In this document: one piece after another, positions 27,714 to 40,739 of the stretch
Layout of the letters: every line of letters begins with the position of its first letter
Numbering within the stretch: position 1 is the stretch's first letter
From: Lophium mytilinum
Lineage: Eukaryota
DNA length: 64,000 nucleotides
Direction of reading: 5' to 3'
NCBI GenBank assembly: GCA_010093605.1
Contig: MU004191.1
Location: 1,472,816-1,536,815, forward strand
Made by a program: the position numbers and the translations under genes
The notes under the pieces: model-generated
What the model saw: only the letters and a program-made list of their open reading frames with translations
Database searches by the model: none
What the model was told of the DNA's origin: nothing

Positions 27714-30700
27714 TCATGAGAAGAAGTACTTACTCTCTCTCAAGCGCCGCACGTCAAAGTCGCCTTTTTTCGGAACAGGCGGGAAGATGAGCGGGAGCCA
27801 GATCTGTATTTTCCCCGAATGTTTGAGCTTGCGGGCTGGCTTCTCGTCCTTGCTCTTCTCAGCCACTGCGTCAGCCGGAGGCTCGCCGGCTTGCGCTTCT
27901 ATCTCAGAGAGCTCAGCACTGATCATCTTCTCCTGGATTTTCTCTACCAGCTCGGGCGTCGGTTTCCCAATCAGAGGCTGCTCAACTTCGGTGACCATAG
28001 CCGACGCATCTTGCGCGGCCTCGTAGATGCTTGCTGGTGTGACCATCGCTAGGCCCTTCTTACGCTCCTCCGCGTCTTCAGAGTGCAACAGGCGCTGTCG
28101 ATCTGCTTCCACGAGAAGCTCGGTGTATGAAGCGGTCCGGGCCTTCTTCCCTAACGTTTCTTTCCTCAGCGCCAAGACCTGCCGGGCTGCCGCACTTTCG
28201 CCCTTGAGATCTGCGAGATACATAGACCCAGCATGGCGAGCCTTGAACTCGGCAGCAAGACGCCCGACGATGTCCTCCGAATGCATGCGTACGAAAGCGT
28301 CGCGCAGGATTTCGTTCATTTTGGGCACATCCGCTGGGTGCGTCCAGAAAGAATCATGGACAGCAGCAAACGTGAGACCCTCCTCGCTGCACTTGAGTGC
28401 TGAGAGTAGCATGTGGGTCGCGTCTAGAGAGTGGATGAAGTTGGGAGGGAAAGCTTGCAACTGCTTTCGTTTTGAGACGGCGTCTGAGGCCCGGGGGTCC
28501 ATGATCGTCAACTCTTGCAGGGCGGTCTTGATCTGTATGTGCTTGCTTTTCCGGTATGGTTGCACAACTGGCATCCTTAATGGAGTGGTCCAAATGACAC
28601 TAGATTTAAATTCCATGGCAGACGCCATGACGTTGGCTTCTGATTTTGCCGTATGTTTCCTCTTCTGTTTCGTTGGCTCCTTGAATTTTACGTCCGAGAA
28701 GGCTTCGTGGGATTTGCCAGACTCTACAGCTTCCTGCAACTTCTCTATCTGCTCCGCAGTAACCGAAGTTGTGATCCGAGCTGCGCAAGCGCCAAGCCAG
28801 AATTGTATGTCTTGAGCGCCATTAAAGATCTGCGCCAACGCGTCGAATATTTGCTTCGCAACGTAGGCTGCGGAGCTGCCCAGACCTGCCTGGCCAGCGC
28901 TCGGCTGAAAGTCGGGTTCGATATCCTTTAGTTGGTCGAGGACTTGGAGACGCGCTCCTTCGAAAGTTACGCCATAAACGTTGGTCATCACAGTGCGCTT
29001 AACAACTTTGCGAGTAATTTTGCCGTCTAGAAACTGAGCTTTCTCGTTGCCATCTTTTGCGTCTTTGGCGATTGCGGTCTTAACGAGCTCAGCAACTCCG
29101 GTATAGATGTCTTGTGGGCGGTCAGAAGGCTCCAGATTGACTTGAGTAGCACCATTTTCATCGCCGCCGAGAGCTGCATAATGTTGAAGGCCGTTGCAGG
29201 TACCATCCTGATGTACTGGGAAGGAAGACACGTATCTTGCAGGATCTGGAGAATCTAGCGCATTTTTAAGTTCAAAGCAACAGGCGAGACATTGCCATGG
29301 ATCCTCGGCTTTTAACCACCATCGGGCACCGGAAAGTGGGTTCGTAGCAGAGTCGTAGATGTGATTGAGGTTCTCCATGGTAAACTCCTCTCGTTCGAGA
29401 AGACTAGCCTTATCAAACCCGTATAGATTGGCTAAATGGATCTTCAGCCATTTCAATCCAACGCTCCCAAGTTCCTTCCCTTTAGCAAATTTTAGAAGAC
29501 CGCGCGCAAGGTCAGCACCCATATGGTTCAGCGTAGGCGGAATAGGATATGCTCTTCCACGGAAGTCGATATTGTGCGGGTAGTAAATCGTCTCGTTCAA
29601 ATATGAGCGGGCCATCTCCAGTTGTAGATTTTGAAAGCATCGTTGCGAGTGCAGTCCATCCTTCTTCTCATTGCACTCTTTGACCGCCTTGTACCACCTC
29701 AAGCGCTCTAACACAGGTGCTCCAGAGGGTGGTTCTGCAGGGAGCGGAACTTCGATGTCGCCGGGAACAAGCGCACCAATGCCCTCTCCAGCATTCCATG
29801 CTTGGACCATCACTTCGAAGACTTCCTTATTGATTTGCCATGGAACCCGTCCAAGAGCGTCGAGCCCTTCAAAGATTTGGTCCATATCTCCTCTCTGGAT
29901 GGCTGAGATGGCATACCTAGCCTGAAATTCATCTCCGTCCTTCATTCGGACTGCTCTGGTAGGGTATCGATAATAACCGCCCTTGTTAAACGACGTCCAC
30001 GGTTTCGGCTCGACCACCATCGGCAGGCGAAAAGTCGACTGACCCCTCATAGGCTCCCGCGTTAGCTTAAGTGACAACTCGCTGTGCAAGGTCAGAACTC
30101 CCATTTGTTTGCCCCTGACATGAATGTTGCTATGGATGTAGGCTGGTTGAACACTCGAGAGAGTCCCGCCTGTTTTTGGGTCGTTTCGGAAAACTGTAAC
30201 TTTGGCGCTTTGTAGGAACTTCTCGATCAGAAGTGCCCCGATCTTAACCTTGACGTGACGAGGAAAAATAGGTCCGTTTTCGACGAGATGGGAAGGTTGT
30301 GTCGATTCTGAGTTGTGCTGCTTCGAGTTGTCGTACTTGAATTTCCCCTTGCTTATCTTGGCCAGCGCTTTCTGGCGGAATAGTGACTGTTTCACACCCG
30401 CAGTGACGGACTTTCGCGACGCCGCCATTCGAACGGTGTGTTCCAACTCCAGCACAGTTGCCAAATTGACCGCGAGAGGCGCGATCCTATTGCTTGAATT
30501 GGCGCCTTCTACACCTGCTAGATCTCCTACCAGCTTATTGACTGTGATAGCAGAGAGAGTCTTTGCGTCGAAGAGCTCCAGGTAAGCTCCGTACACCAGC
30601 CGGTCCGAGTTCTTGTGTGTCGCTTCATTGGCGAGGGCCTTTCTCACCGCAACAAGCTCCTTTTCTATCAGTGGAGTCAGAGTCGTGTACCACTCCCACA

Positions 30701-31901
30701 TCAAGGCTCCCATAGGTTTTGTCTTCAAGGCCCCGTGAATTCCGATCTTCATGAGCTGCTCATCATCGTACTTCCAGCGAGCCACCGAGGCATCAACCGC
30801 AGTCTCTTCCAGTTGAATTTGCCGCATGACGGCGTAAGCTCTGTCCTTTTCCTCCTGTGAGCCTTCCATATCGTGGGGATACGGTAAGGCGTTGGGAGGA
30901 TCGAATGCGCTCAAGGCCTGTTTTAATGTCTCCATCCCCATTCCCCTTTGTGGTATTCCCCGAATCTCTGTAGTCGGGTCCTTCATGAAACCATGCTCAA
31001 TCGCAATCTCTCGACCACCAGGCGTACTAACGGCCGCACTCAAGCCCTCAGCAATCATAACCGGCGGTTCATCGTAGTCCTCGCCCTGGATTCTGATCAA
31101 AGTATCCCATTCCTCTTCGGTAAATTCGGGTGATGAATTGACTGCGTATTCCATGTCTGTTCCGAGATCCTTTGCAATGTCCATATATTTCCCAACCGCC
31201 TGGTCCCTCCGTTCGCTATGGAGAAGAGACAAAGCTCCTTTTATCATTACTACCAGAGTGCGGTCGTCTGGTTCGATGCCCTTGTGGACCATATCATTAT
31301 TGTACCAGTCCTCGAGGTCTCGCATCTTGGAGTTGACTGGATCTTGCAACATTGCATCTAGCTTTGCTCGAAGATAAACATTATGGGCGTCCAGAATCTC
31401 GATTGCTGAGGGATGGTATACAGCTGCCAGCCTTCGCACTATAGCTGCAGCGCGGTCCAAGCGACCAACTCGTATGCAGGCGTGCAGATTTTGGTAAAGC
31501 TCGGCAGGGTCGCCTCCTATGCCTTTCTCGAATCGGAGCCGAGGGGGCGCCGCGATGGACGCTTTGTTGATGAAGATGGATTGTGGCGTAAGCGCCCAGT
31601 CTGAACCACCCAGCTCGCTACTAGTTCCCCATTGCGCGGGAGGGGCGAAAGGAGGAGCACTTGACGGCGAATAGGCGTCGGCGGCGGTGGATACTGAGCG
31701 GCTTTCGGTGCGTAGCGATGCGTGTCGAGGGGGCGTCCGTTTTATGGAATTAGAGGCTTTGGGGACCCGGAAAGCTGTACTCGCAGCCCATCGCATTTGC
31801 GCCGGACATAGCCAGGGCAGAATTAATTGATCGAAGGCCACGGGTGGCCGTTGGAAGGCATTGCGTCGTCCTCTCGGTGCACGCGTGGCGCGCGCGAGCA
31901 T
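27714..31901 (-). CDS. RPO41: Mitochondrial T3/T7-type DNA-directed RNA polymerase
   Basis: DFRGRAY, HQDGTCNGLQHY, RKVVKRTVMTNVYG, FPPNFIHSLDA and VHDSFWTH motifs and the YFFS C-terminus. Start set at the Arg-rich presequence MLARATR. Confidence 0.97.
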   Translation of the reverse strand: MLARATRAPRGRRNAFQRPPVAFDQLILPWLCPAQMRWAASTAFRVPKASNSIKRTPPRHASLRTESRSVSTAADAYSPSSAPPFAPPAQWGTSSELGGSDWALTPQSIFINKASIAAPPRLRFEKGIGGDPAELYQNLHACIRVGRLDRAAAIVRRLAAVYHPSAIEILDAHNVYLRAKLDAMLQDPVNSKMRDLEDWYNNDMVHKGIEPDDRTLVVMIKGALSLLHSERRDQAVGKYMDIAKDLGTDMEYAVNSSPEFTEEEWDTLIRIQGEDYDEPPVMIAEGLSAAVSTPGGREIAIEHGFMKDPTTEIRGIPQRGMGMETLKQALSAFDPPNALPYPHDMEGSQEEKDRAYAVMRQIQLEETAVDASVARWKYDDEQLMKIGIHGALKTKPMGALMWEWYTTLTPLIEKELVAVRKALANEATHKNSDRLVYGAYLELFDAKTLSAITVNKLVGDLAGVEGANSSNRIAPLAVNLATVLELEHTVRMAASRKSVTAGVKQSLFRQKALAKISKGKFKYDNSKQHNSESTQPSHLVENGPIFPRHVKVKIGALLIEKFLQSAKVTVFRNDPKTGGTLSSVQPAYIHSNIHVRGKQMGVLTLHSELSLKLTREPMRGQSTFRLPMVVEPKPWTSFNKGGYYRYPTRAVRMKDGDEFQARYAISAIQRGDMDQIFEGLDALGRVPWQINKEVFEVMVQAWNAGEGIGALVPGDIEVPLPAEPPSGAPVLERLRWYKAVKECNEKKDGLHSQRCFQNLQLEMARSYLNETIYYPHNIDFRGRAYPIPPTLNHMGADLARGLLKFAKGKELGSVGLKWLKIHLANLYGFDKASLLEREEFTMENLNHIYDSATNPLSGARWWLKAEDPWQCLACCFELKNALDSPDPARYVSSFPVHQDGTCNGLQHYAALGGDENGATQVNLEPSDRPQDIYTGVAELVKTAIAKDAKDGNEKAQFLDGKITRKVVKRTVMTNVYGVTFEGARLQVLDQLKDIEPDFQPSAGQAGLGSSAAYVAKQIFDALAQIFNGAQDIQFWLGACAARITTSVTAEQIEKLQEAVESGKSHEAFSDVKFKEPTKQKRKHTAKSEANVMASAMEFKSSVIWTTPLRMPVVQPYRKSKHIQIKTALQELTIMDPRASDAVSKRKQLQAFPPNFIHSLDATHMLLSALKCSEEGLTFAAVHDSFWTHPADVPKMNEILRDAFVRMHSEDIVGRLAAEFKARHAGSMYLADLKGESAAARQVLALRKETLGKKARTASYTELLVEADRQRLLHSEDAEERKKGLAMVTPASIYEAAQDASAMVTEVEQPLIGKPTPELVEKIQEKMISAELSEIEAQAGEPPADAVAEKSKDEKPARKLKHSGKIQIWLPLIFPPVPKKGDFDVRRLRESKYFFS

Positions 31902-32258
31902 GGTCTGCGAACAGGAGGGAGGTCGGCGTAAAGAAAATGGACGAGACGCACACCGACACAAGAGACGAAGACAAAAACACAAGAAGGAGGGACGGGGGAG
32001 AGGATGGTAGGATGGACAGGAGTGACGATTAGAGTCGCAAAAATGTTTCTCAGCCGAGTCGATGGGCACGCCCCTTGCAGTTGGCCAAGCCTCTAGACAC
32101 GTGATCTCGAAAACCGCCGGGCAACTTTTGTAATGAGCTCCATCGCGCCAGGATAGAACCAACCTCACCTCACAACCACGCCTCGCCGATGGACTAGGCA
32201 GCTCCCTCAACTCTACGACGCATCCGTAGCGCTGCGAAAGTCCAGCCCGCGCCGTATC

Positions 32259-35200
32259 ATGGACGACCTCGCCTCCCTCGAGCTGCTTTCGCTGGTGTCG
32301 AAGGTCACCTCCGAGATACAGAACCATCTGGGCATTTCCGACAAGACTCTCGCCGAGTTCGTTATCGCCCAGCATGCTAAATGCAAATCGCTTCCAGAGT
32401 TCAAGTCTACACTGGAAGAGTTCGGCGCCGAGTTCCCGCAGTCCCTGGTCGAAAGCATCGACAGACTAATCCTGACTCTCCACCCAAAGTTCGCAAAGAA
32501 GCAGAACGCCGCGCAGGCAGAAGCCCACGAGCCTGCAGACGAACAGGACCGCAAGACGAGGGTGTTCAAGGGCCTCGCGATTCCAGATAAAGAGCCAGCG
32601 TGGAGCACTGAAGATGCGACGCAAGGAAATGGGGCGAAACAAGAGGACACAACGTTGGCGGCACTAGACGATACCTTTGCGATGCTCGAGGGCCTCGCGG
32701 GCAAAGCGGCGCCACCATCGAGGGACATACCGTCCAGGAAGCGCAGCATCAGCCCTCTTGCGGACGATAGTCGAGACCGAGGACGGAGCAAGCGGCATAG
32801 ATACAGGTCGCAGTCGCCGTCGCAGAGCCGCGAACGGGGCGATCGGCGGTCAAAGAACGACGACTTCGTTTTTGAGGATGAATTTGGCCGTACACGAACT
32901 AAAGACCGCCGAGAAGAAAAGCGAAATGGACGACGCCGTCGCCGCAGTAACGACGACGAGTTTAAGCGGCCCCCAACCCCAGAGCTCGACGATGAGCCAG
33001 TCTTATTTAAGGTATATAATGGCAAAGTCACTGGGGTGAAAGATTTTGGAGTGTTTGTTAACCTACAAGGTGTTCGTGGCAAAGTAGATGGGCTGGTACA
33101 TGTCACGCAGATGCAGGAAGGTGCTCGAGTCAATCACCCTTCAGACCTGGTTTCCAACTATCAGGAAGTCAAGGTCAAAGTCCTCAAGTTGGACAATAAT
33201 AGGGTCAGCCTCTCAATGAAAGAAGTAGATCAAGTCACCGGCCACGACCTTGCCCCCCAGCGTCGAATTGCGTCTGGCGCAAACATGGAGGGTCCGCGCG
33301 GCAGCTCAGGCGGGAATGATCGCTATGGGGGTCTTGTGTCTGATGTCCCAGTCGTTGAGGGTGCCATGAATGGCAGACGTACAGGCACACAAAAAAGATT
33401 GACGTCGCCAGAGAGATGGGAGCTCCGACAGCTCATAGCTTCAGGGGCTGTGTCTGCCAAAGATTATCCAGATCTCGATGAGGACTACCACGCCGCCCTC
33501 AATGGTGACGGCGGTTTTGAAGAAGAGGAGGAGGTTGATATCGAAATTCGCGAGGAGGAGCCACCTTTCCTTGCAGGCCAGACGAAGCAGTCTCTGGAGT
33601 TGTCTCCAATTCGAGTAGTGAAAGCCCCAGACGGCTCCCTTAATCGAGCTGCCTTGGCCGGAGACTCGCTAGCTCGAGAGCGCAGAGAGATAAGGCAACA
33701 GGAAGCCCAGGAAAAAGCCGCCAAGGATGCCTCCCAAGTCGACCTCAGTAGTCAATGGCAAGATCCAATGGTAGCTCCAGACCAGAGGAAGTTTGCGTCT
33801 GACTTGCGCAACACCCGAAACAATCAAGCCGGCGAAGTTGTGCCGGAATGGAAACGAATCGCTCAAGGCAAAGAACAACAACTTGGCAAACGAACTGACA
33901 TGAGCATCAAAGATCAACGCGAGAGCCTTCCAGTCTTCAAATTCCGAAACCAACTCTTGGATGCTGTGCGCGCACACCAACTTCTCATTGTCGTTGGAGA
34001 TACTGGCTCTGGCAAAACGACCCAGCTAACTCAGTACCTAGCAGAGGCTGGCTTTGCTAACGATGGAATGATTGGTTGCACGCAGCCACGGCGTGTGGCA
34101 GCCATGTCCGTCGCCCAGCGCGTCTCGGAAGAAGTAGGCTGCAGAATGGGACATGAGGTCGGCTACACCATCCGATTCGAAGACAACACGGGCCCGGATA
34201 CTAAGATAAAATACATGACCGACGGTATCATGCAGCGCGAGATTCTATTGGACCCCCTTTTACAGAAATACTCGGTCATTATGCTCGACGAAGCTCACGA
34301 ACGTACGATAGCAACAGATGTGCTCTTCGGCCTTCTCAAAAAGACATTGAAGAGGCGACCTGACCTCAAGCTCATTGTCACAAGCGCCACCCTCGATGCA
34401 GACAAGTTCTCGGAGTACTTCAATTCAGCACCCATCTTCTCTATCCCGGGCCGAACATATCCTGTGGAAGTGATGTACAGTCGCGAACCGGAATCCGACT
34501 ATCTCGACTCTGCGCTGGTGACGGCAATGCAGATCCATCTGTCCGAACCGATGGGAGATATCCTTCTTTTCCTTACTGGGAAAGAAGAAATTGACTCTGC
34601 CTGTGAGGTGCTCTATGAACGCATGAAGGGGCTTGGACCTAGCGTGCCCGAGCTCATGATTCTACCAATTTACGGAGCTCTCCCTTCTGAGGTTGCGAGC
34701 CGAATCTTCGAGCCTGCGCCGCCGGGCAGTCGCAAGATCGTTATCGCCACGAATATCGCTGAGACCTCCATCACGATCGATGGGATATACTACGTCATAG
34801 ATCCCGGATTCGTGAAACAGTCTTCATACGACCCCAAACTTGGAATGGACAGACTGCAAGTTGTACCAATCTCGCAAGCAAACGCAAAACAGCGCGCCGG
34901 TCGTGCTGGAAGAACAGGGCCTGGTAAATGCTTTCGGCTATACACAGAGACCGCCTTTCAGAGTGAGATGCTGCCGACCACTATTCCAGAAATTCAACGC
35001 CAGAATCTGTCGAATACTATCCTAATGCTCAAGGCCATGGGCATCAACGATTTACTTCACTTTGATTTCATGGACCCGCCGCCGACGAACACCATGCTTA
35101 CAGCACTCGAAGAGCTTTACAGCCTAGGTGCTCTAGACGACGAAGGCTTACTGACTCGGATGGGCAGGCAGATGGCAGACTTTCCCATGGACCCGACTCT

Positions 35201-35924
35201 ATCAAAAGCACTAATCTATTCCACAACACTGGACTGTTCTGATGAGATGCTTACGATTGTGGCGATGATTTCAGCAACACAGACGGTTTTCCACAGACCA
35301 CGAGACAAGCAGAACCAGGCAGACCAAAAGAAAGCCAAATTCCACGATCCAAGCGGTGATCATCTCACACTCCTGAATGTCTACAACGCCTGGAAAACGT
35401 CGAAATTCTCTACCCCGTGGTGTCTCGACAACTTTGTCCAGCCCCGCAACATGCGCCGCGTCAAGGACGTCAGAGAGCAGCTCGTCACCATCATGGAGCG
35501 CCATAAGCACCGCGCCATCTCGTGCGGGCGCAACACGGTAAAGGTCCGCCAGGCTCTTTGCTCTGGCTTCTTCCGCAATTCGGCTCGCAAAGATCCGCAG
35601 GAGGGCTACAAGACGCTTGTTGAAGGCACTCCGGTTGCACTTCATCCGTCCTCGGCGCTGTTTGGTAAGGCGGCTGAGCACGTGATCTACCAGTCTCTGG
35701 TCGAAACGACAAAAGAATACATGCATGTTGTCTCGGCGATTGAGCCGAAGTGGCTCGTGGAGGCGGCGCCGACTTTCTTCAAGGTGGCGCCGACGGATAG
35801 GCTCAGCAAGAGGAAGAAGGCGGAGAGGATCCAGCCGCTGCATAACAGATTTGCTGGAGAGGATGATTGGAGGCTGAGTGCACAGAAGAGGCAGGGCAGG
35901 GGAGGCGGTGGAACGTGGGGTTAA
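32259..35924 (+). CDS. PRP22: Pre-mRNA splicing DEAH-box helicase with S1 domain (DHX8)
   Basis: S1 domain (KDFGVFV), GDTGSGKTT, TQPRRVAA, DEAHER, SAT, QRAGRAGR. Intronless 1221-aa ORF. Confidence 0.97.
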   Translation: MDDLASLELLSLVSKVTSEIQNHLGISDKTLAEFVIAQHAKCKSLPEFKSTLEEFGAEFPQSLVESIDRLILTLHPKFAKKQNAAQAEAHEPADEQDRKTRVFKGLAIPDKEPAWSTEDATQGNGAKQEDTTLAALDDTFAMLEGLAGKAAPPSRDIPSRKRSISPLADDSRDRGRSKRHRYRSQSPSQSRERGDRRSKNDDFVFEDEFGRTRTKDRREEKRNGRRRRRSNDDEFKRPPTPELDDEPVLFKVYNGKVTGVKDFGVFVNLQGVRGKVDGLVHVTQMQEGARVNHPSDLVSNYQEVKVKVLKLDNNRVSLSMKEVDQVTGHDLAPQRRIASGANMEGPRGSSGGNDRYGGLVSDVPVVEGAMNGRRTGTQKRLTSPERWELRQLIASGAVSAKDYPDLDEDYHAALNGDGGFEEEEEVDIEIREEEPPFLAGQTKQSLELSPIRVVKAPDGSLNRAALAGDSLARERREIRQQEAQEKAAKDASQVDLSSQWQDPMVAPDQRKFASDLRNTRNNQAGEVVPEWKRIAQGKEQQLGKRTDMSIKDQRESLPVFKFRNQLLDAVRAHQLLIVVGDTGSGKTTQLTQYLAEAGFANDGMIGCTQPRRVAAMSVAQRVSEEVGCRMGHEVGYTIRFEDNTGPDTKIKYMTDGIMQREILLDPLLQKYSVIMLDEAHERTIATDVLFGLLKKTLKRRPDLKLIVTSATLDADKFSEYFNSAPIFSIPGRTYPVEVMYSREPESDYLDSALVTAMQIHLSEPMGDILLFLTGKEEIDSACEVLYERMKGLGPSVPELMILPIYGALPSEVASRIFEPAPPGSRKIVIATNIAETSITIDGIYYVIDPGFVKQSSYDPKLGMDRLQVVPISQANAKQRAGRAGRTGPGKCFRLYTETAFQSEMLPTTIPEIQRQNLSNTILMLKAMGINDLLHFDFMDPPPTNTMLTALEELYSLGALDDEGLLTRMGRQMADFPMDPTLSKALIYSTTLDCSDEMLTIVAMISATQTVFHRPRDKQNQADQKKAKFHDPSGDHLTLLNVYNAWKTSKFSTPWCLDNFVQPRNMRRVKDVREQLVTIMERHKHRAISCGRNTVKVRQALCSGFFRNSARKDPQEGYKTLVEGTPVALHPSSALFGKAAEHVIYQSLVETTKEYMHVVSAIEPKWLVEAAPTFFKVAPTDRLSKRKKAERIQPLHNRFAGEDDWRLSAQKRQGRGGGGTWG

Positions 35925-36066
35925 TGAGGAGTGGCTGGGTTGGCTAGTGGTGAGAGATGCATGCCGTTCTTGGAGCATTGTGAGAAGGTTGGACAGGCCG
36001 CGTACTAAAAGCGTAAATATTTAGTTACATGCGTTTTCAGAATGCAACTCATGCCTGTCCCTAATA

Positions 36067-36741
36067 CTATCTCCTTTCCTCTACTCTCCCCTCAATCAAC
36101 CTCGCTATCTCTACCTGCCATTCCCCCCATCGCGACAAAGACTCCAGCCACCACAAACCACACTGCACCAGCCTCAGCTTTACCTCCCTTCTCCTCAGCC
36201 TCTTCAGCAGCCGGAACTGTTCCATCCCCTCTAGCTCCTCTACCCGGGGCAACCGCGACTCAACCGGATCTCCCGGCTTCTCCGAGACCAGTCTACCAGT
36301 AACATATATCTCGATCTCTCTCAGACTCTCAAACTCTTCTAGAACCGCATGATCTTCTTCAACGCTCCATCCCGCTCCGGGTCCCGAAGAGCATCGGACT
36401 AGAGTGTAGGTGATACGCACGCTGCGGATGCACTTCTTTTCGATGCTCCCGAGGCAGGCAATGAAGGTGGGGAAGATGCGGGGTCGTGGCACGCAGATGA
36501 GGCGGGTGGTGTAGAGGAGGGAGAGGACTTCGTGGCGGAGTTGGCGCGAGACGGCGCGGAGGGGAATGGTGGGAAGGTAGGTAGGAAGGTGTAGGATTGT
36601 TGATGGGATGAGGTGGTCGAGATAGAGGGTGTAGATGTAGTTGCGGAGTTCGGGAGGGAGGGACAGGAGCGGGCAGTGAGTATTATGTTCGGGTTTACTT
36701 GACGCATTATTGTTTGCTTCGAAGGCGTGGTGTTGATTCAT
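36067..36741 (-). CDS. F-box-like domain protein (lineage-variable fungal family)
   Basis: CPLLSLPPELRNYIYTLYL followed by LRAVSRQLRHEVLSLLY, the common signature of ascomycete F-box-like proteins. The start codon is uncertain. Confidence 0.7.
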   Translation of the reverse strand: MNQHHAFEANNNASSKPEHNTHCPLLSLPPELRNYIYTLYLDHLIPSTILHLPTYLPTIPLRAVSRQLRHEVLSLLYTTRLICVPRPRIFPTFIACLGSIEKKCIRSVRITYTLVRCSSGPGAGWSVEEDHAVLEEFESLREIEIYVTGRLVSEKPGDPVESRLPRVEELEGMEQFRLLKRLRRREVKLRLVQCGLWWLESLSRWGEWQVEIARLIEGRVEERR

Positions 36742-37036
36742 GATTGACGTTCTTTTACTTGGTTGGTAGTTGCTTTTGAATAGCTTCATAAGTGAAGAAT
36801 ACTGCGGAATGGTGTGAACGAGCAGTCCAAGCTTTCGAGAAAAAGAGGGTCGCTTACAGCACGTCGAGAGGAGAAATATCAAGGCAAAAGCAAACAGAGT
36901 GTGTGGCGTAGATGGCGTTAAACTAGATGGTATGGAGCTGAAACCTTGGCATATAAGGCAGCCACTTCGTATCGGTGCTCAGCTGCGGAGTCAACCCCTA
37001 TTCACGATCCTCAACAGCAGTGTCAAATTCAGATTG

Positions 37037-38469
37037 ATGGAGCCACTTGAAAAGGAGAGCCCGCAGAATATCAATGAGAGGAGCGGCAAAGGACACATGA
37101 TCCGCACAAAATGTCCTGGCTGCGGCAAGTTAAAGACGGAGGAGGAAAGAATTGAAGATGGATGTCTCAGGGCGGTGACCTTGGAGGATGGATCTAAGTC
37201 TTTCGCTGATTTGGGTCTGAAGGACGAACTTCTCCGAGGTGAGCTGGATCATTATTCGTATTGACAAAATGTCTGAACAATAAGGCAGGAATCGAAGCTT
37301 TTGGGTAAGCTAACATACCCTATCATGTACTTCGTTATCTTGTCTCAAAACTCACCTCCAAGTCTATCTGAGCCTTCCGAAATCCAACAACTCGCTATCC
37401 CCTCGCTCCTCCAACGTACGTTCACTTGCCCTTCCCTCGCACGCTGGGCATGAAAAAAGTGGCACACTTACCAAGATTTATCTTTTGCGGTCGTGCGTAC
37501 ACATGTCTGCCACTGCTTGGAGTGCTTCAAGGTTTCCAGATAGCCCAAAGCTAAGACGTTCTACCTCTTTTGCATTTCAAATGATGTATTGAAGCACCCC
37601 AAACAGCGGCAGACAAGTGTATAAGAGGCAAATGTGGGTTGAGTGTGCCACCTTTTTCATGCCCCGCGTGTCTCGTACCCTCACTCAACCCCATCAGGTG
37701 ACTCTATGCACATCCGCCACTTCTCCAAATCCGGCAAATCCCTCGCACTCGCCATCTCCGCTCTCCAACTCATAGATACCACCATCCCCTTCTTCCAAGT
37801 CGTCATCCTCGTTGCTCCCCACTTCAAACTTGAAGTACTTGCCGATGAGATGCAACAGCTCGCAGCTTTTATGCCGGACATCAAAACACTAGCGATTTCA
37901 AGCCCACCAAACATCCGCGTTGTGGCAGAGAAAATGCGAGCAGGTCCGCATCACATCCTCATAGCCAGCCCGTGGAAATTCAGGTATTTCGCGGAGACGG
38001 GGGGTCCAATGGATAGCTGGGAGATTCAGGGATTGGGAATGGATTTTAGTAAGGTGAAGTATGTAATGTTTGACGATATTACGGAGATGGCGGTAAGTCT
38101 GTGACTTCAGTCCGGTTTAGTTGTCGAGGATAACGAGATCTGATGCCGTCAAAGTACTCATCGGTCACTGGAGACGAACGATACAGGGGCTTTGTGAAAA
38201 CTATAGCTGAGAACTTGAACACCGACGTCAACATCGTCACCACAAATTGCACTACGGAATCCGAGTTCGAGGAGGCTTTGTCGGCTTTTCGCAAATGTCC
38301 GAGGAAAGTGATTGCCGCCAGGGCAACTTGGTATAGTGAGACACTCCCAGTATATACGTTGAGGGAGGAAGCACGACGAGACCACTTGATGAAAGGAAAG
38401 AGTCCGGGTGGTTACCGGTTCGGAAATGCGTTACCGCCTGATGTGAAGCCAGAGGCTTCGAACTGCTAA
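37037..38469 (+). CDS. Degenerate eIF4A-like single RecA-domain (pseudo-DEAD-box) protein
   Basis: Five exons join in frame (introns 37239-37288, 37305-37362, 37416-37697, 38093-38154). Product includes SFADLGLKDELLRGIEAFGLSEPSEIQQLAI (Q-motif), SKSGKS, LQLIDT, HILIASPWKF and VKYVMFDDITEM. Confidence 0.75.
37439..37671. repeat. Foldback inverted repeat / putative MITE inside intron 3 of the pseudo-DEAD gene
   Basis: 37439-37469 pairs with 37641-37671, and 37498-37530 pairs with 37589-37621 (33 bp, 4 mismatches). Confidence 0.8.
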
Positions 38470-39019
38470 ATTTTCAGTCTTAGGCCACAAGTCTGGGCAC
38501 ACTCGGTTATAACTGGCCCACTCAATACCACTATAAGGGGTGGCCTAGTTGCTACGCAGGCGGTGAGTCAAGAGGCAGTCTAATCTACATTCTTTGAAGC
38601 TTGACATCGCCCTTGAGCCCTTGAGATCCTGTGGGGGTACCCCAAGTAGTGGCATACCAGTGTGCCCAGGCTTGTGGCCTGTCACTGTAGTTGCCATCTC
38701 GTACAGAAATGAAACCAGTATTACCACGAGGCAGACTATAGTAAACTTCACATCCAGCCCATATTTCTGGTGGCGGCACGGATTGACTTGTGACAGCCTC
38801 ACGAGGCTCGTTGAGAGAAGTGTGACTGGAGTAGATTTGAATTGATCATGACTTGCCACGTGAAGATTTGCCCATCTAGAGCTTCTGTTCACGCAGTGAA
38901 CTTATTCCAGGTCTGGCAAGTCTTGTTGCCCTCACCATACGCAATCCCAAACTCCGAGAATATGATATCAACCCGGCAAGATTTTGATCTTCCAGAGAGC
39001 AGCAGCTAAAGCCGTAGAC

Positions 39020-39978
39020 TCAAGACCTCGCCCGGAACTCATCCCACATGTTGTACATCCGGGCGGCCTGTCCAGGCGTGAAGTTCGTCATGCACGGATC
39101 GTTAGAGTAGTCCATGTAGTTGTGCACAGGATCCAAACCCGGCGATGGGCATGAATCACGGGGAGGGTTGAAATCGCAGCCCCCGGCGTAGGATGCTTCC
39201 GCAGGAGTGTCGTCGACCGAGTCGCCAGTGCCGTCACAGCCGCCGTCGAAGGTGTGCATGACGCCTAGCCAATGCCCGATCTCGTGCGTGGCCACCTTGC
39301 CCTCGTTCCAACCGGCGAAGCTGCCACCAGGGACAGTGCTTTGGTAGGATAAAGCGTTAGCATAGCTAGTCCAGCTATTATAGAGAGGCACAGAAACTTA
39401 CTTGTAGCGGACGCATACTCCATCGAGAAAGAAGCCGTCCGAGTTAGGATCGACGCGGGATGGGTAATACGCATAACCAAAGAGGTTCGGGATTTGTTGC
39501 TGAAGGTAAAGGTTGAGCACTTTGTAACTGCCCTTCCGCAAAGCCTTCTTCATCGCAAGCGCTGTGCTGCCCTCACCCGACGTAGCCCAGGCTTGGTTGA
39601 CAGTCCTATCTATTCCGACTAGCGCGAAGGAGATTCCGTGGGGTGCGTAGTAGGCGTTCAAGGCGTTGATCTGGTCATGGATCATGTTGTCTGGCAGGTT
39701 CCCATCGTCAAGAGATTGACCGACTGAGACGACATGGACATATACGTCGATCCCGAATGAGTCAACCTGCGAAATTCGTCCACTCCGCTCCTGGACGTTC
39801 ATTTCGTTGGCTGCCTCGATGAAGGCCTCTGAAGCGTGAGTGCCGCAGTCGAGGCCATGGACTGGTCACATTAGTAGCGATTCTTGAGCTAGTGTTTTGG
39901 GCATCGAGAATAATTACCCAGGTCGCACATGAACGACAGAGCTGCAAGCCAGACGACGGCAATGATAGTGGAACGCAT
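39020..39978 (-). CDS. Secreted M43 (pappalysin/ulilysin-like) zinc metalloprotease
   Basis: Signal peptide, CGT cysteine-switch, HEIGHWLGVMHTF zinc motif, NYMDYS Met-turn, FTPGQ. Two introns. Confidence 0.92.
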
Positions 39979-40739
39979 CTTGACTCGGTGTTTCCGATAT
40001 GCTAGCTATTGCCTCTATTAGCTCGAGACAACGAGAGAGTTTTTGTTTTGGGACAGGTGTCTCCTTCAGACACTCAAAGCTAAAACTTTAAAACTTGAGA
40101 AATGGCTTCACTTACAGTCCTTGAGGGCGCATATATAGCGGAATTATCCAGATAGACTTGAATCTGTGGAAGACGAATCTTGTCGGCGTGGTGAGGTGGA
40201 GGAAGGGGGGTGGTGTGGATGTTGTGGGTAGAAGTAGGAAGGAGCGGACTAGCGCAGAGAAGTAAGTGAACGACCACAGCTGGCCACCGGCAGCAATGGG
40301 ACTTATCGCCAGCCGACCGAGCAATGAACGCCTGGACTCGGCTATTGGAAGGGACGTGGAATAGTTCACGAGATAGAAGTATACTTCATTGCCGCTAGGT
40401 CAGGAGGTCACAGACACTTTAACAGTCAGGAGCAAGTATACCAATGTGCCTTACGAGTACCGGCAGATGATACCATCTGAAATGGCATGGGAAACTTACA
40501 AGTTTGCTCAATTGCAACTCTTTGAGGTCCCGGAAACCGTGTCGGAGCATGAGAGAGCTTCAAACAGTGACACTCAAGCATACGTGATCACGTCCCGATT
40601 CTTTACGTCACGATCTGGAAAAGAATAAGGACGGTAGCGAATGTTTATATAGACAGTTGAGTTGAAATCATCAAAAGTGGGTACAAAACTAATAGCAACG
40701 AAGGTAAGAAGAGAATACTCCACTGATAATCAACGAAAC

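Follow-up and report, generated by a model that had tools for sequence, protein, structure and literature searches.

Results

A spliced gene encoding a single RecA-like domain

We analysed 64,000 nucleotides of DNA from Lophium mytilinum (Dothideomycetes, Mytilinidiales), spanning positions 1,472,816 to 1,536,815 of contig MU004191.1 and referred to here as the window. We focused on a gene on the forward (+) strand, at positions 36932-38469, that encodes a relative of the first RecA-like domain (RecA1) of the DEAD-box protein eIF4A. An earlier note on this DNA had described five exons, GT..AG introns and a stop-free frame. That structure is correct. After removal of the four GT..AG introns the translation is identical, letter for letter, to a deposited L. 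mytilinum protein of 361 residues (P0001), named 'P-loop containing nucleoside triphosphate hydrolase protein' in the database. Exon 4 alone, used as a query, returned this protein at 100% identity. The start codon may lie further upstream than the earlier note had it. The ATG at 37037, from which the earlier note began, is present as Met36 of the deposited model, which itself begins 105 nt upstream at an ATG at position 36932.

All features of the gene lie on the forward strand. Exon 1 (36932-37238) encodes a poorly conserved N-terminus, with the motif CPGC at 37112-37123 (residues 61-64) and a conserved phenylalanine, Phe91, upstream of the Q motif at 37202-37204. Intron 1 (37239-37288) is 50 nt long and has the form GTGAGC..AG. 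It is followed by a 16-nt micro-exon, exon 2 (37289-37304), encoding (G)IEAF(G). Intron 2 (37305-37362; 58 nt, GTAAGC..AG) splits the sequence GLSEPSEIQ (37303-37387), so that most of the Q motif falls in exon 3 (37363-37415). Intron 3 (37416-37697; 282 nt, GTACGT..AG) contains a nested palindromic element. Exon 4 (37698-38092) encodes the RecA1 core. Intron 4 (38093-38154; 62 nt, GTAAGT..AG) precedes exon 5 (38155-38469), which encodes the end of RecA1 and a conserved tail before the stop codon TAA (38467-38469). The four 5' splice sites are typical of fungi. Exon 4 has no in-frame stop in 131 codons, the other two frames having 5 and 6; exon 5 has none in 104 codons, the other two frames having 8 and 4.

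Transcription and splicing were assessed using public data, as the earlier note had suggested. A single transcript contig of 6045 nt, from one public run compared with positions 35500-40000, joins across all four introns. Hence, every proposed junction is found in a transcript, micro-exon included, and the possibility that spliced transcripts do not exist can be set aside. In the contig, position 37239 is joined to 37362, and 14 of the micro-exon's 16 letters lie between them, intron 1 being absent. Position 37415 is joined to 37698, with GT..AG borders and 282 nt skipped, and 38091 is joined to 38154, with 62 nt skipped. Past the stop codon the contig continues unspliced to 38655, 186 nt further on and with no joint. 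The 3' untranslated region (38470-38655) therefore extends at least to the end of the contig, and overlaps an inverted-repeat element at 38475-38687. We consider the run to be RNA-derived because a neighbouring minus-strand peptidase gene is also spliced there, with CT..AC joints.

Intact relatives occur in two fungal orders

We searched for relatives using a word-indexed search over 5.8 billion clusters and an exhaustive phmmer search over 1.84 billion representatives. Both gave the same few proteins, and phmmer identified five family representatives. In a profile search, six family proteins scored 219-483 bits; the next protein scored 84 bits. The relatives are from Lindgomyces ingoldianus (301 residues), Clohesyomyces aquaticus (327 residues) and Lepidopterella palustris (242 residues, P0004, with a near-identical 256-residue Logan protein, P0003), together with a 148-residue open reading frame (ORF) from a metagenome (P0006), 67% identical to exon 4. 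Hence, the family is known from four named species in two orders of the Pleosporomycetidae, the Mytilinidiales and the Pleosporales (family Lindgomycetaceae). The databases hold only predicted proteins, and a micro-exon could defeat gene callers; the known distribution is thus a lower bound.

The earlier note had anticipated that frameshifted orthologues would speak for a pseudogene. The relatives in the three other species, across two orders, are intact and share the same end point. In each of the four full-length members the stop comes 4-15 residues beyond an invariant GYRFG, which lies at 38410-38424 in the L. mytilinum gene. Pairwise identity within the family is 37-57%, and the N-terminus is not conserved. 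The N-terminal extension with CPGC, pointed out by the earlier note, is thus present in L. mytilinum but is not a feature of the family.

The deposited model of the L. palustris protein, P0004, is 14 residues short of the Logan protein P0003, the missing residues including the motif II variant. The start of both proteins, MFTFV directly ahead of the Q motif, is implausible and suggests that the 5' exons were modelled wrongly, perhaps with a missed micro-exon.

A scan of metagenomes for DNA of the family returned four loci, none of which belongs to it: three hold ordinary DEAD-box genes, at 25-33% identity, and the fourth is a chance match of 23 residues. The Protein Atlas contained generic DEAD clusters only. 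A literature search returned no description of this fungal family, or of a natural RecA1-only eIF4A paralogue in fungi.

The phmmer search also surfaced proteins with tandem eIF4A-like RecA1 domains. P0007 has six DEAD domains and P0010 has five, both with no Helicase_C domain. P0008 has four DEAD domains and one Helicase_C. P0012 has two DEAD domains according to Pfam, no Helicase_C, and breaks off about 50 residues into the second RecA-like domain (RecA2). Hence, RecA1-only repeats exist elsewhere.

The protein is an eIF4A-type RecA1 domain

Pfam PF00270 (DEAD) is the only domain in the L. mytilinum protein. It covers residues 114-292, with an E value of 1.1e-8 and a score of 35.4 bits against a cut-off of 26. 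The five family members scanned likewise carry PF00270 only, the relatives scoring 53-58 bits. In a single-sequence search of the PDB the best solved matches were the N-terminal domains of human eIF4A-I and eIF4A-II (E 7e-12, residues 89-309). Yeast eIF4A, eIF4A-III, Sub2 and DDX19 followed. With the family profile, the highest scores were obtained for eIF4A-I (87.1 bits, E 1.1e-23), eIF4A-II (83.1 bits, a chain of the DEAD domain only) and eIF4A-III (82.7 bits), and then for yeast eIF4A (79.6 bits), Sub2 (72.7 bits) and DDX6 (60.2 bits).

The earlier note had asked for structural and profile comparisons with eIF4A, and these place the protein at the eIF4A DEAD domain. Aligned by hhalign with 12 full-length DEAD-box proteins, the family gave a probability of 99.9 and an E value of 6e-38, and was collinear past RecA1. 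In an AlphaFold2 model, residues 90-310 have a predicted local distance difference test score (pLDDT) of about 78-98 per 10-residue block, mostly at least 85; the region encoded by exon 4 scores 85-98. Confidence is low at the N-terminus (residues 1-55, pLDDT <50) and in the tail (from residue 315). The top Foldseek matches of the model are structures of the eIF4A1 DEAD domain, with template modelling (TM) scores of 0.87-0.92 normalised by target. The match to an eIF4A-type RecA1 domain is far beyond chance.

The closest known system is RecA1 of eIF4A itself (human eIF4A-I and eIF4A-II, yeast Tif1/2). The pattern of the Q-motif region is nearly identical and all RecA1 motifs are kept in order. 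Identity to canonical DEAD-box proteins is only about 20-27%. The fungal family differs in having no RecA2, in having HFSKSGKS in place of AQSGTGKT at motif I and DD(I/T)x in place of DEAD at motif II, and in having lost SAT and GG. Motifs Ia and Ib are degenerate, about 11 residues are inserted before motif II, and a C-terminal GYRFG peptide is specific to the family. The same differences apply to eIF4A-III (DDX48; Fal1 in fungi), which matches over the same domain to the same collinear extent and scores nearly equally (82.7 bits versus 87.1 bits for eIF4A-I). On present scores, either subfamily may be the parent.

Motifs for catalysis are rewritten while pocket residues are retained

To describe the motifs we compared the family with 32 non-family DEAD-box rows (31 rows at motif II). 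The motif readings of the earlier note all hold, namely an eIF4A-like Q-motif region, SKSGKS at motif I, no PTRELA, SPWK, DDIT and no SAT. In L. mytilinum the Q-motif region is GLSEPSEIQQLAIP. The Q motif is present, as Phe91 and GLSEPSEIQ, and EPSEIQQLAIP is invariant, save one S/A change, in the three of four full-length relatives that cover it. The non-family rows share Q116 (32/32), P112 (27/32) and I115 (27/32).

Motif I departs from the canonical form. The variant HFSKSGKS (37718-37741) has the family pattern H-x-S-K-S-G-K-S rather than A-x-x-G-x-G-K-T, so that only G-K and a hydroxyl residue are kept. The equivalents of motifs Ia and Ib, also in exon 4, are APHFKL (37814-37831), where PTRELA would stand, and SPWK (37967-37978). 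A family-specific insertion follows at 37997-38041. Motif II reads DDIT in L. mytilinum (38072-38083) and DDIT, DDIE or DDTS across the family. Glutamate is replaced by aspartate in 5/5 sequences that cover the motif. In exon 5, TTNC (38239-38250) occupies the position of SAT. The family has TTN, ACA, ASA or ANC there, and GG is lost in all members.

The relatives also have SKSGKS, and DD in place of DE. Several derived residues are fixed in the family at positions that are nearly uniform in canonical rows: G136K (G in 31/32), T140S (T in 32/32) and E252D (E in 30/31). G126R, D128S and Q132R are also fixed. Canonical residues retained in the family are Q116 (32/32), G138 and K139 (31/32 each), Q159 (31/32) and D251 (30/31). 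Over residues 86-312 only 17 family-invariant positions match the canonical majority, and most of these are in the nucleotide pocket. The protein has the DEAD-box fold and ancestry but fails four of the six defining DEAD-box features.

Motif loss has gone furthest in L. mytilinum. Three of the five members, those from Lindgomyces, Clohesyomyces and Lepidopterella, still have TRE of motif Ia and GR of motif Ib, which neither L. mytilinum nor the metagenome fragment P0006 has. This fits the Pfam score of the L. mytilinum protein, which is the lowest in the family.

We considered whether the degenerate motifs were caused by repeat-induced point mutation (RIP). The TpA/ApT index is 0.62 and the (CpA+TpG)/(ApC+GpT) index is 1.26, values like those of neighbouring genes. 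We therefore rejected this explanation. GC content by codon position also resembles that of neighbouring genes.

RecA2 is absent and RecA1 is followed by a conserved tail

To unwind RNA, or to hydrolyse ATP in response to RNA, a DEAD-box protein needs its two RecA domains, the glutamate of motif II and the motif VI arginines of RecA2. We found no Helicase_C domain (PF00271) in the L. mytilinum protein or four relatives scanned with Pfam. A tblastn search of the 64-kb window, using eight full-length helicases and accepting E values up to 1, found no RecA2-like coding sequence, only short chance matches inside other genes; at the locus itself it detected the RecA1 exons only. No helicase-like frame occurs in the 550 nt between the stop codon and the next gene. 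ORFs at 38079-38411, 37681-37950 and 38567-38845, on the minus strand and downstream, have no Pfam match. Since the transcript also runs on unspliced past the stop, a downstream exon supplying RecA2, the case that the earlier note had raised against itself, is not found. With RecA2 and its motifs IV-VI missing, the motif II glutamate changed to aspartate, and SAT and GG lost, the L. mytilinum protein can neither unwind RNA nor act as an RNA-stimulated ATPase.

The earlier note also had the ORF stopping where RecA2 would start. A RecA2 domain is indeed missing. However, RecA1 is followed by a tail of about 50 residues that reaches the first strand and helix of RecA2. In exon 5, LPVYTLREEARRDHL (38344-38388) aligns with these two elements. 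Using hhalign, residues ~318-337 (SETLPVYTLREEARRDHLMK) are collinear with them, and HMMER gives the same tail alignment against eIF4A-I ('irqfYINVEREEWKLDTL'). On this sequence evidence the gene resembles one of eIF4A type truncated about 20 residues inside RecA2 rather than right at the boundary between the domains.

GYRFG, towards the end of the tail, is invariant in 4/4 full-length family members. The region has a pLDDT <50 in models of both the L. mytilinum and Lindgomyces proteins; the LPVYVL strand reaches about 72 in the latter. The tail is thus conserved yet predicted to be disordered in both models, and so looks like a partner-binding peptide.

We also considered whether GYRFG might descend from motif VI (GRFG of HRIGRxGRFG) by an internal deletion in RecA2. 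A MAFFT alignment had put the tail at the GRFG of motif VI. The idea was not supported, as hhalign of the tail gave no match at motif VI.

Conservation is sharply uneven

We next compared the four full-length members column by column. Invariant columns number 31/48 for residues 103-150, covering the Q motif, motif I and its helix. The rest of RecA1 (residues 151-311) has 12/147 and the tail (residues 320-347) has 9/25. The observed 48-column maximum was reached by 0/10000 permutations. We take this unevenness as a probable sign of selection, standing in for the ratio of non-synonymous to synonymous substitution (dN/dS). None of the marks of a pseudogene was found: the frame is not disrupted, splicing and transcription are not lost, and divergence is not uniform.

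Neighbouring genes and repeat elements

The surrounding genes have housekeeping roles and encode a single-subunit RNA polymerase of mitochondrial type, a PRP22-type helicase, an M43 peptidase and an ATPase of the SNF2/ERCC6L2 type. Given these, a biosynthetic cluster or self-resistance context was set aside. The RNA polymerase gene (27714-32465, minus strand; PF00940, E 2.5e-194) is head-to-head with the gene for the PRP22/DHX8-type DEAH helicase, which has an S1 domain (32157-35924, plus strand), with about 300 nt common to the two stop-to-stop frames. Downstream of our gene, on the minus strand, is an M43 (pappalysin-type) metallopeptidase gene (39020-39865; PF05572, E 1.5e-16). Two introns, at 39339-39401 and 39862-39917, are spliced out in the public run (CT..AC).

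A minus-strand stop-to-stop ORF of 303 codons (36067-36978) is divergent to our gene and has no Pfam match at 1e-4. The transcript contig described above covers, without a gap, this ORF together with our gene's own 5' end and the PRP22-type gene at its 3' end. Neighbouring transcripts therefore overlap or abut.

The nested palindromic element in intron 3 (37440-37670) has outer arms of 29 nt with 93% complementarity and inner arms of 33 nt with 88%. It accounts for most of the unusual length of this 282-nt intron and looks like a miniature inverted-repeat transposable element (MITE). Other contigs of the public run match parts of the element and then enter unrelated sequence. Hence, there are probably copies elsewhere in the genome. 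The second inverted-repeat element (38475-38687), in the 3' untranslated region and beyond, has 29-nt arms with 86% complementarity separated by 155 nt. Summed contig depth rises there, and several contigs have loose ends. The two elements share only an 8-nt core at the ends of the inner arms and do not align otherwise. The core pattern occurs twice in the window and in 0/100 shuffles. No Rfam RNA family was detected on either strand between 35900 and 39100.

Discussion

We favour the interpretation that this is a maintained RecA1-only gene of eIF4A type, encoding a non-hydrolysing module that binds a ligand. Taken as a whole we consider it probable, with some reserve. Its two parts are not equally secure. 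That the gene is a real, maintained, non-helicase paralogue is very likely; this was the core of the earlier note, and the spliced transcript, the intact relatives and the missing RecA2 all support it. That the protein works as a ligand-binding adaptor is a tentative proposal, drawn from the sequence and the predicted fold.

The proposed course of events is as follows. An eIF4A or eIF4A-III-type DEAD-box gene would have been cut off just inside RecA2 and then kept under selection. The adenine-nucleotide pocket of RecA1 appears to be preserved, in the upstream phenylalanine, the Q-motif glutamine, the P-loop GK(S) and the first aspartate of motif II. The residues lost would be those for catalysis, RNA binding and coupling. 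The pocket also seems to have been remodelled, as the family-invariant basic residues Arg132, His133 and Lys136 are predicted to line the P-loop. The outcome may be a module that binds, and does not hydrolyse, a nucleotide or some other ligand carrying a phosphate. On its own, the conserved C-terminal peptide (LPVY.L.EE.RRD.L...GYRFG) is predicted to be mostly without structure. Together with the surface of the domain it might engage a partner protein, so that the product would be no enzyme but a pseudo-helicase acting as adaptor or regulator.

Several points weigh against this interpretation. Ligand binding is itself a prediction. His133 takes the place of the first small residue of Walker A (alanine in DEAD-box proteins) and Lys136 that of the middle glycine; from mutagenesis of eIF4A, these changes may impair or even destroy ATP binding instead of retuning it. 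The patchy distribution (four named species in databases of billions), the fast divergence (37-57% pairwise identity) and the further loss of motifs in L. mytilinum (TRE of Ia and GR of Ib; 35.4 bits) would each fit weak or shifting constraint. Taken alone, the tail matches only the start of a RecA2 profile, and not significantly (hhalign, E 0.36). For transcription, the contig depth of 220.8 averages in the upstream genes that the contig covers as well, and is no measure of expression. The public run matches the window without one differing letter and so is probably from the same strain. It is possibly the run behind the deposited annotation.

A more specific form of the proposal is that the first half of eIF4A has become a free-standing nucleotide sensor. 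The protein would bind an adenine nucleotide without hydrolysis, and its tail would dock on a partner in a ligand-dependent way. The phosphate contacts that arginines of RecA2 normally make would pass, in cis, to the new arginine, histidine and lysine. The RecA2 remnant and GYRFG would dock onto, for example, RecA2 of a true eIF4A or Fal1, or onto another translation or ribonucleoprotein (RNP) factor. So detailed a mechanism is unlikely to be right in full.

Among the rival explanations, a decoy or dominant-negative role survives best, and we judge it quite unlikely. Here, the inactive RecA1 would rival eIF4A or Fal1 in binding eIF4G, other MIF4G proteins, PDCD4-like proteins or RNA. Such a role would suit a protein whose closest relatives, in sequence and in fold, are eIF4A-I and eIF4A-III, and which is maintained though unable to be a helicase. 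However, the solved complexes of eIF4A with eIF4G, eIF4AIII with CWC22 and DDX6 with CNOT1 (2vso, 4c9b, 4ct4) reportedly place the main MIF4G contact on RecA2, the domain that is absent; the idea is thus weak a priori. Competition for RNA fares no better, as motifs Ia, GG and Ib, which contact RNA, have degenerated, most of all in L. mytilinum, and the 17 positions still canonical across the family lie mostly in the pocket.

The gene could instead be a transcribed relic, a truncated eIF4A duplicate decaying without function and open by chance or weak constraint. The patchy distribution, low pairwise identity (37-57%), extra motifs lost in the Lophium lineage and unconserved N-terminus would all be expected of a relic. 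Against this, in four species of two orders the frames are intact and the stop position is shared. Conservation is strongly non-uniform and derived residues are fixed family-wide. All four introns, with the 16-nt micro-exon, are still correctly spliced, there is no RIP signature, and codon-position composition is like that of neighbouring genes. A relic is improbable on these grounds.

More improbable still is a split helicase, in which RecA1 would act in trans with a RecA2 encoded elsewhere, or homodimerise, to rebuild the ATPase cleft. RecA-type ATP sites are at domain interfaces, and the pocket residues Q, GKS and D are retained, as this would require. Yet the motif II glutamate is replaced by aspartate, and SAT is lost, in all members; the 64-kb window has no RecA2-like coding sequence, and no candidate partner is known. 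Finally, many 'DEAD-only' database proteins are partial models, and the Protein Atlas has clusters with DEAD and little or no Helicase_C (a lead only), but a full-length helicase with missed 3' exons is scarcely credible here, given a stop codon inside a continuous exon 5 with 186 nt more of unjoined transcript, 550 nt to the minus-strand M43 peptidase gene with no helicase-like frame, and three independently annotated relatives that end at the same motif.

There is a precedent for a DEAD-box scaffold kept as a non-enzyme. PMC9539457 describes Utp25/Def, a pseudohelicase of the small subunit (SSU) processome, as having a DEAD-box fold and a function independent of helicase motifs. As described there, Utp25 retains two RecA-like domains, is essential and occurs widely. 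Conceptually, Utp25 is the closest system to ours. The fungal family differs in having one RecA-like domain and in being confined to few fungi, and the likeness is one of concept rather than of sequence comparison.

The family occurs in a few non-model fungi and has no known phenotype. Hence, its importance is for now moderate. For databases there is an immediate consequence, since a label like 'RNA helicase', the name used in UniRef, misdescribes the family. If the nucleotide-sensor mechanism were true, the protein would be a trans-acting 'half-helicase' regulator. Considered with the multi-RecA1 arrays, RecA1-only eIF4A derivatives would then be a recurrent, undescribed class of pseudo-helicase. 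If nucleotide were bound without turnover, the protein would offer a naturally occurring minimal model of the adenine pocket in eIF4A.

Two RecA-like domains closing on ATP and RNA are what defines a DEAD-box protein. A derivative with a single such domain, kept, spliced and transcribed in a family spanning two fungal orders, would mean that the RecA1 scaffold is selectable for something other than helicase activity. The protein might also act in these fungi as a regulator, so far unrecognised, of translation or RNP assembly.

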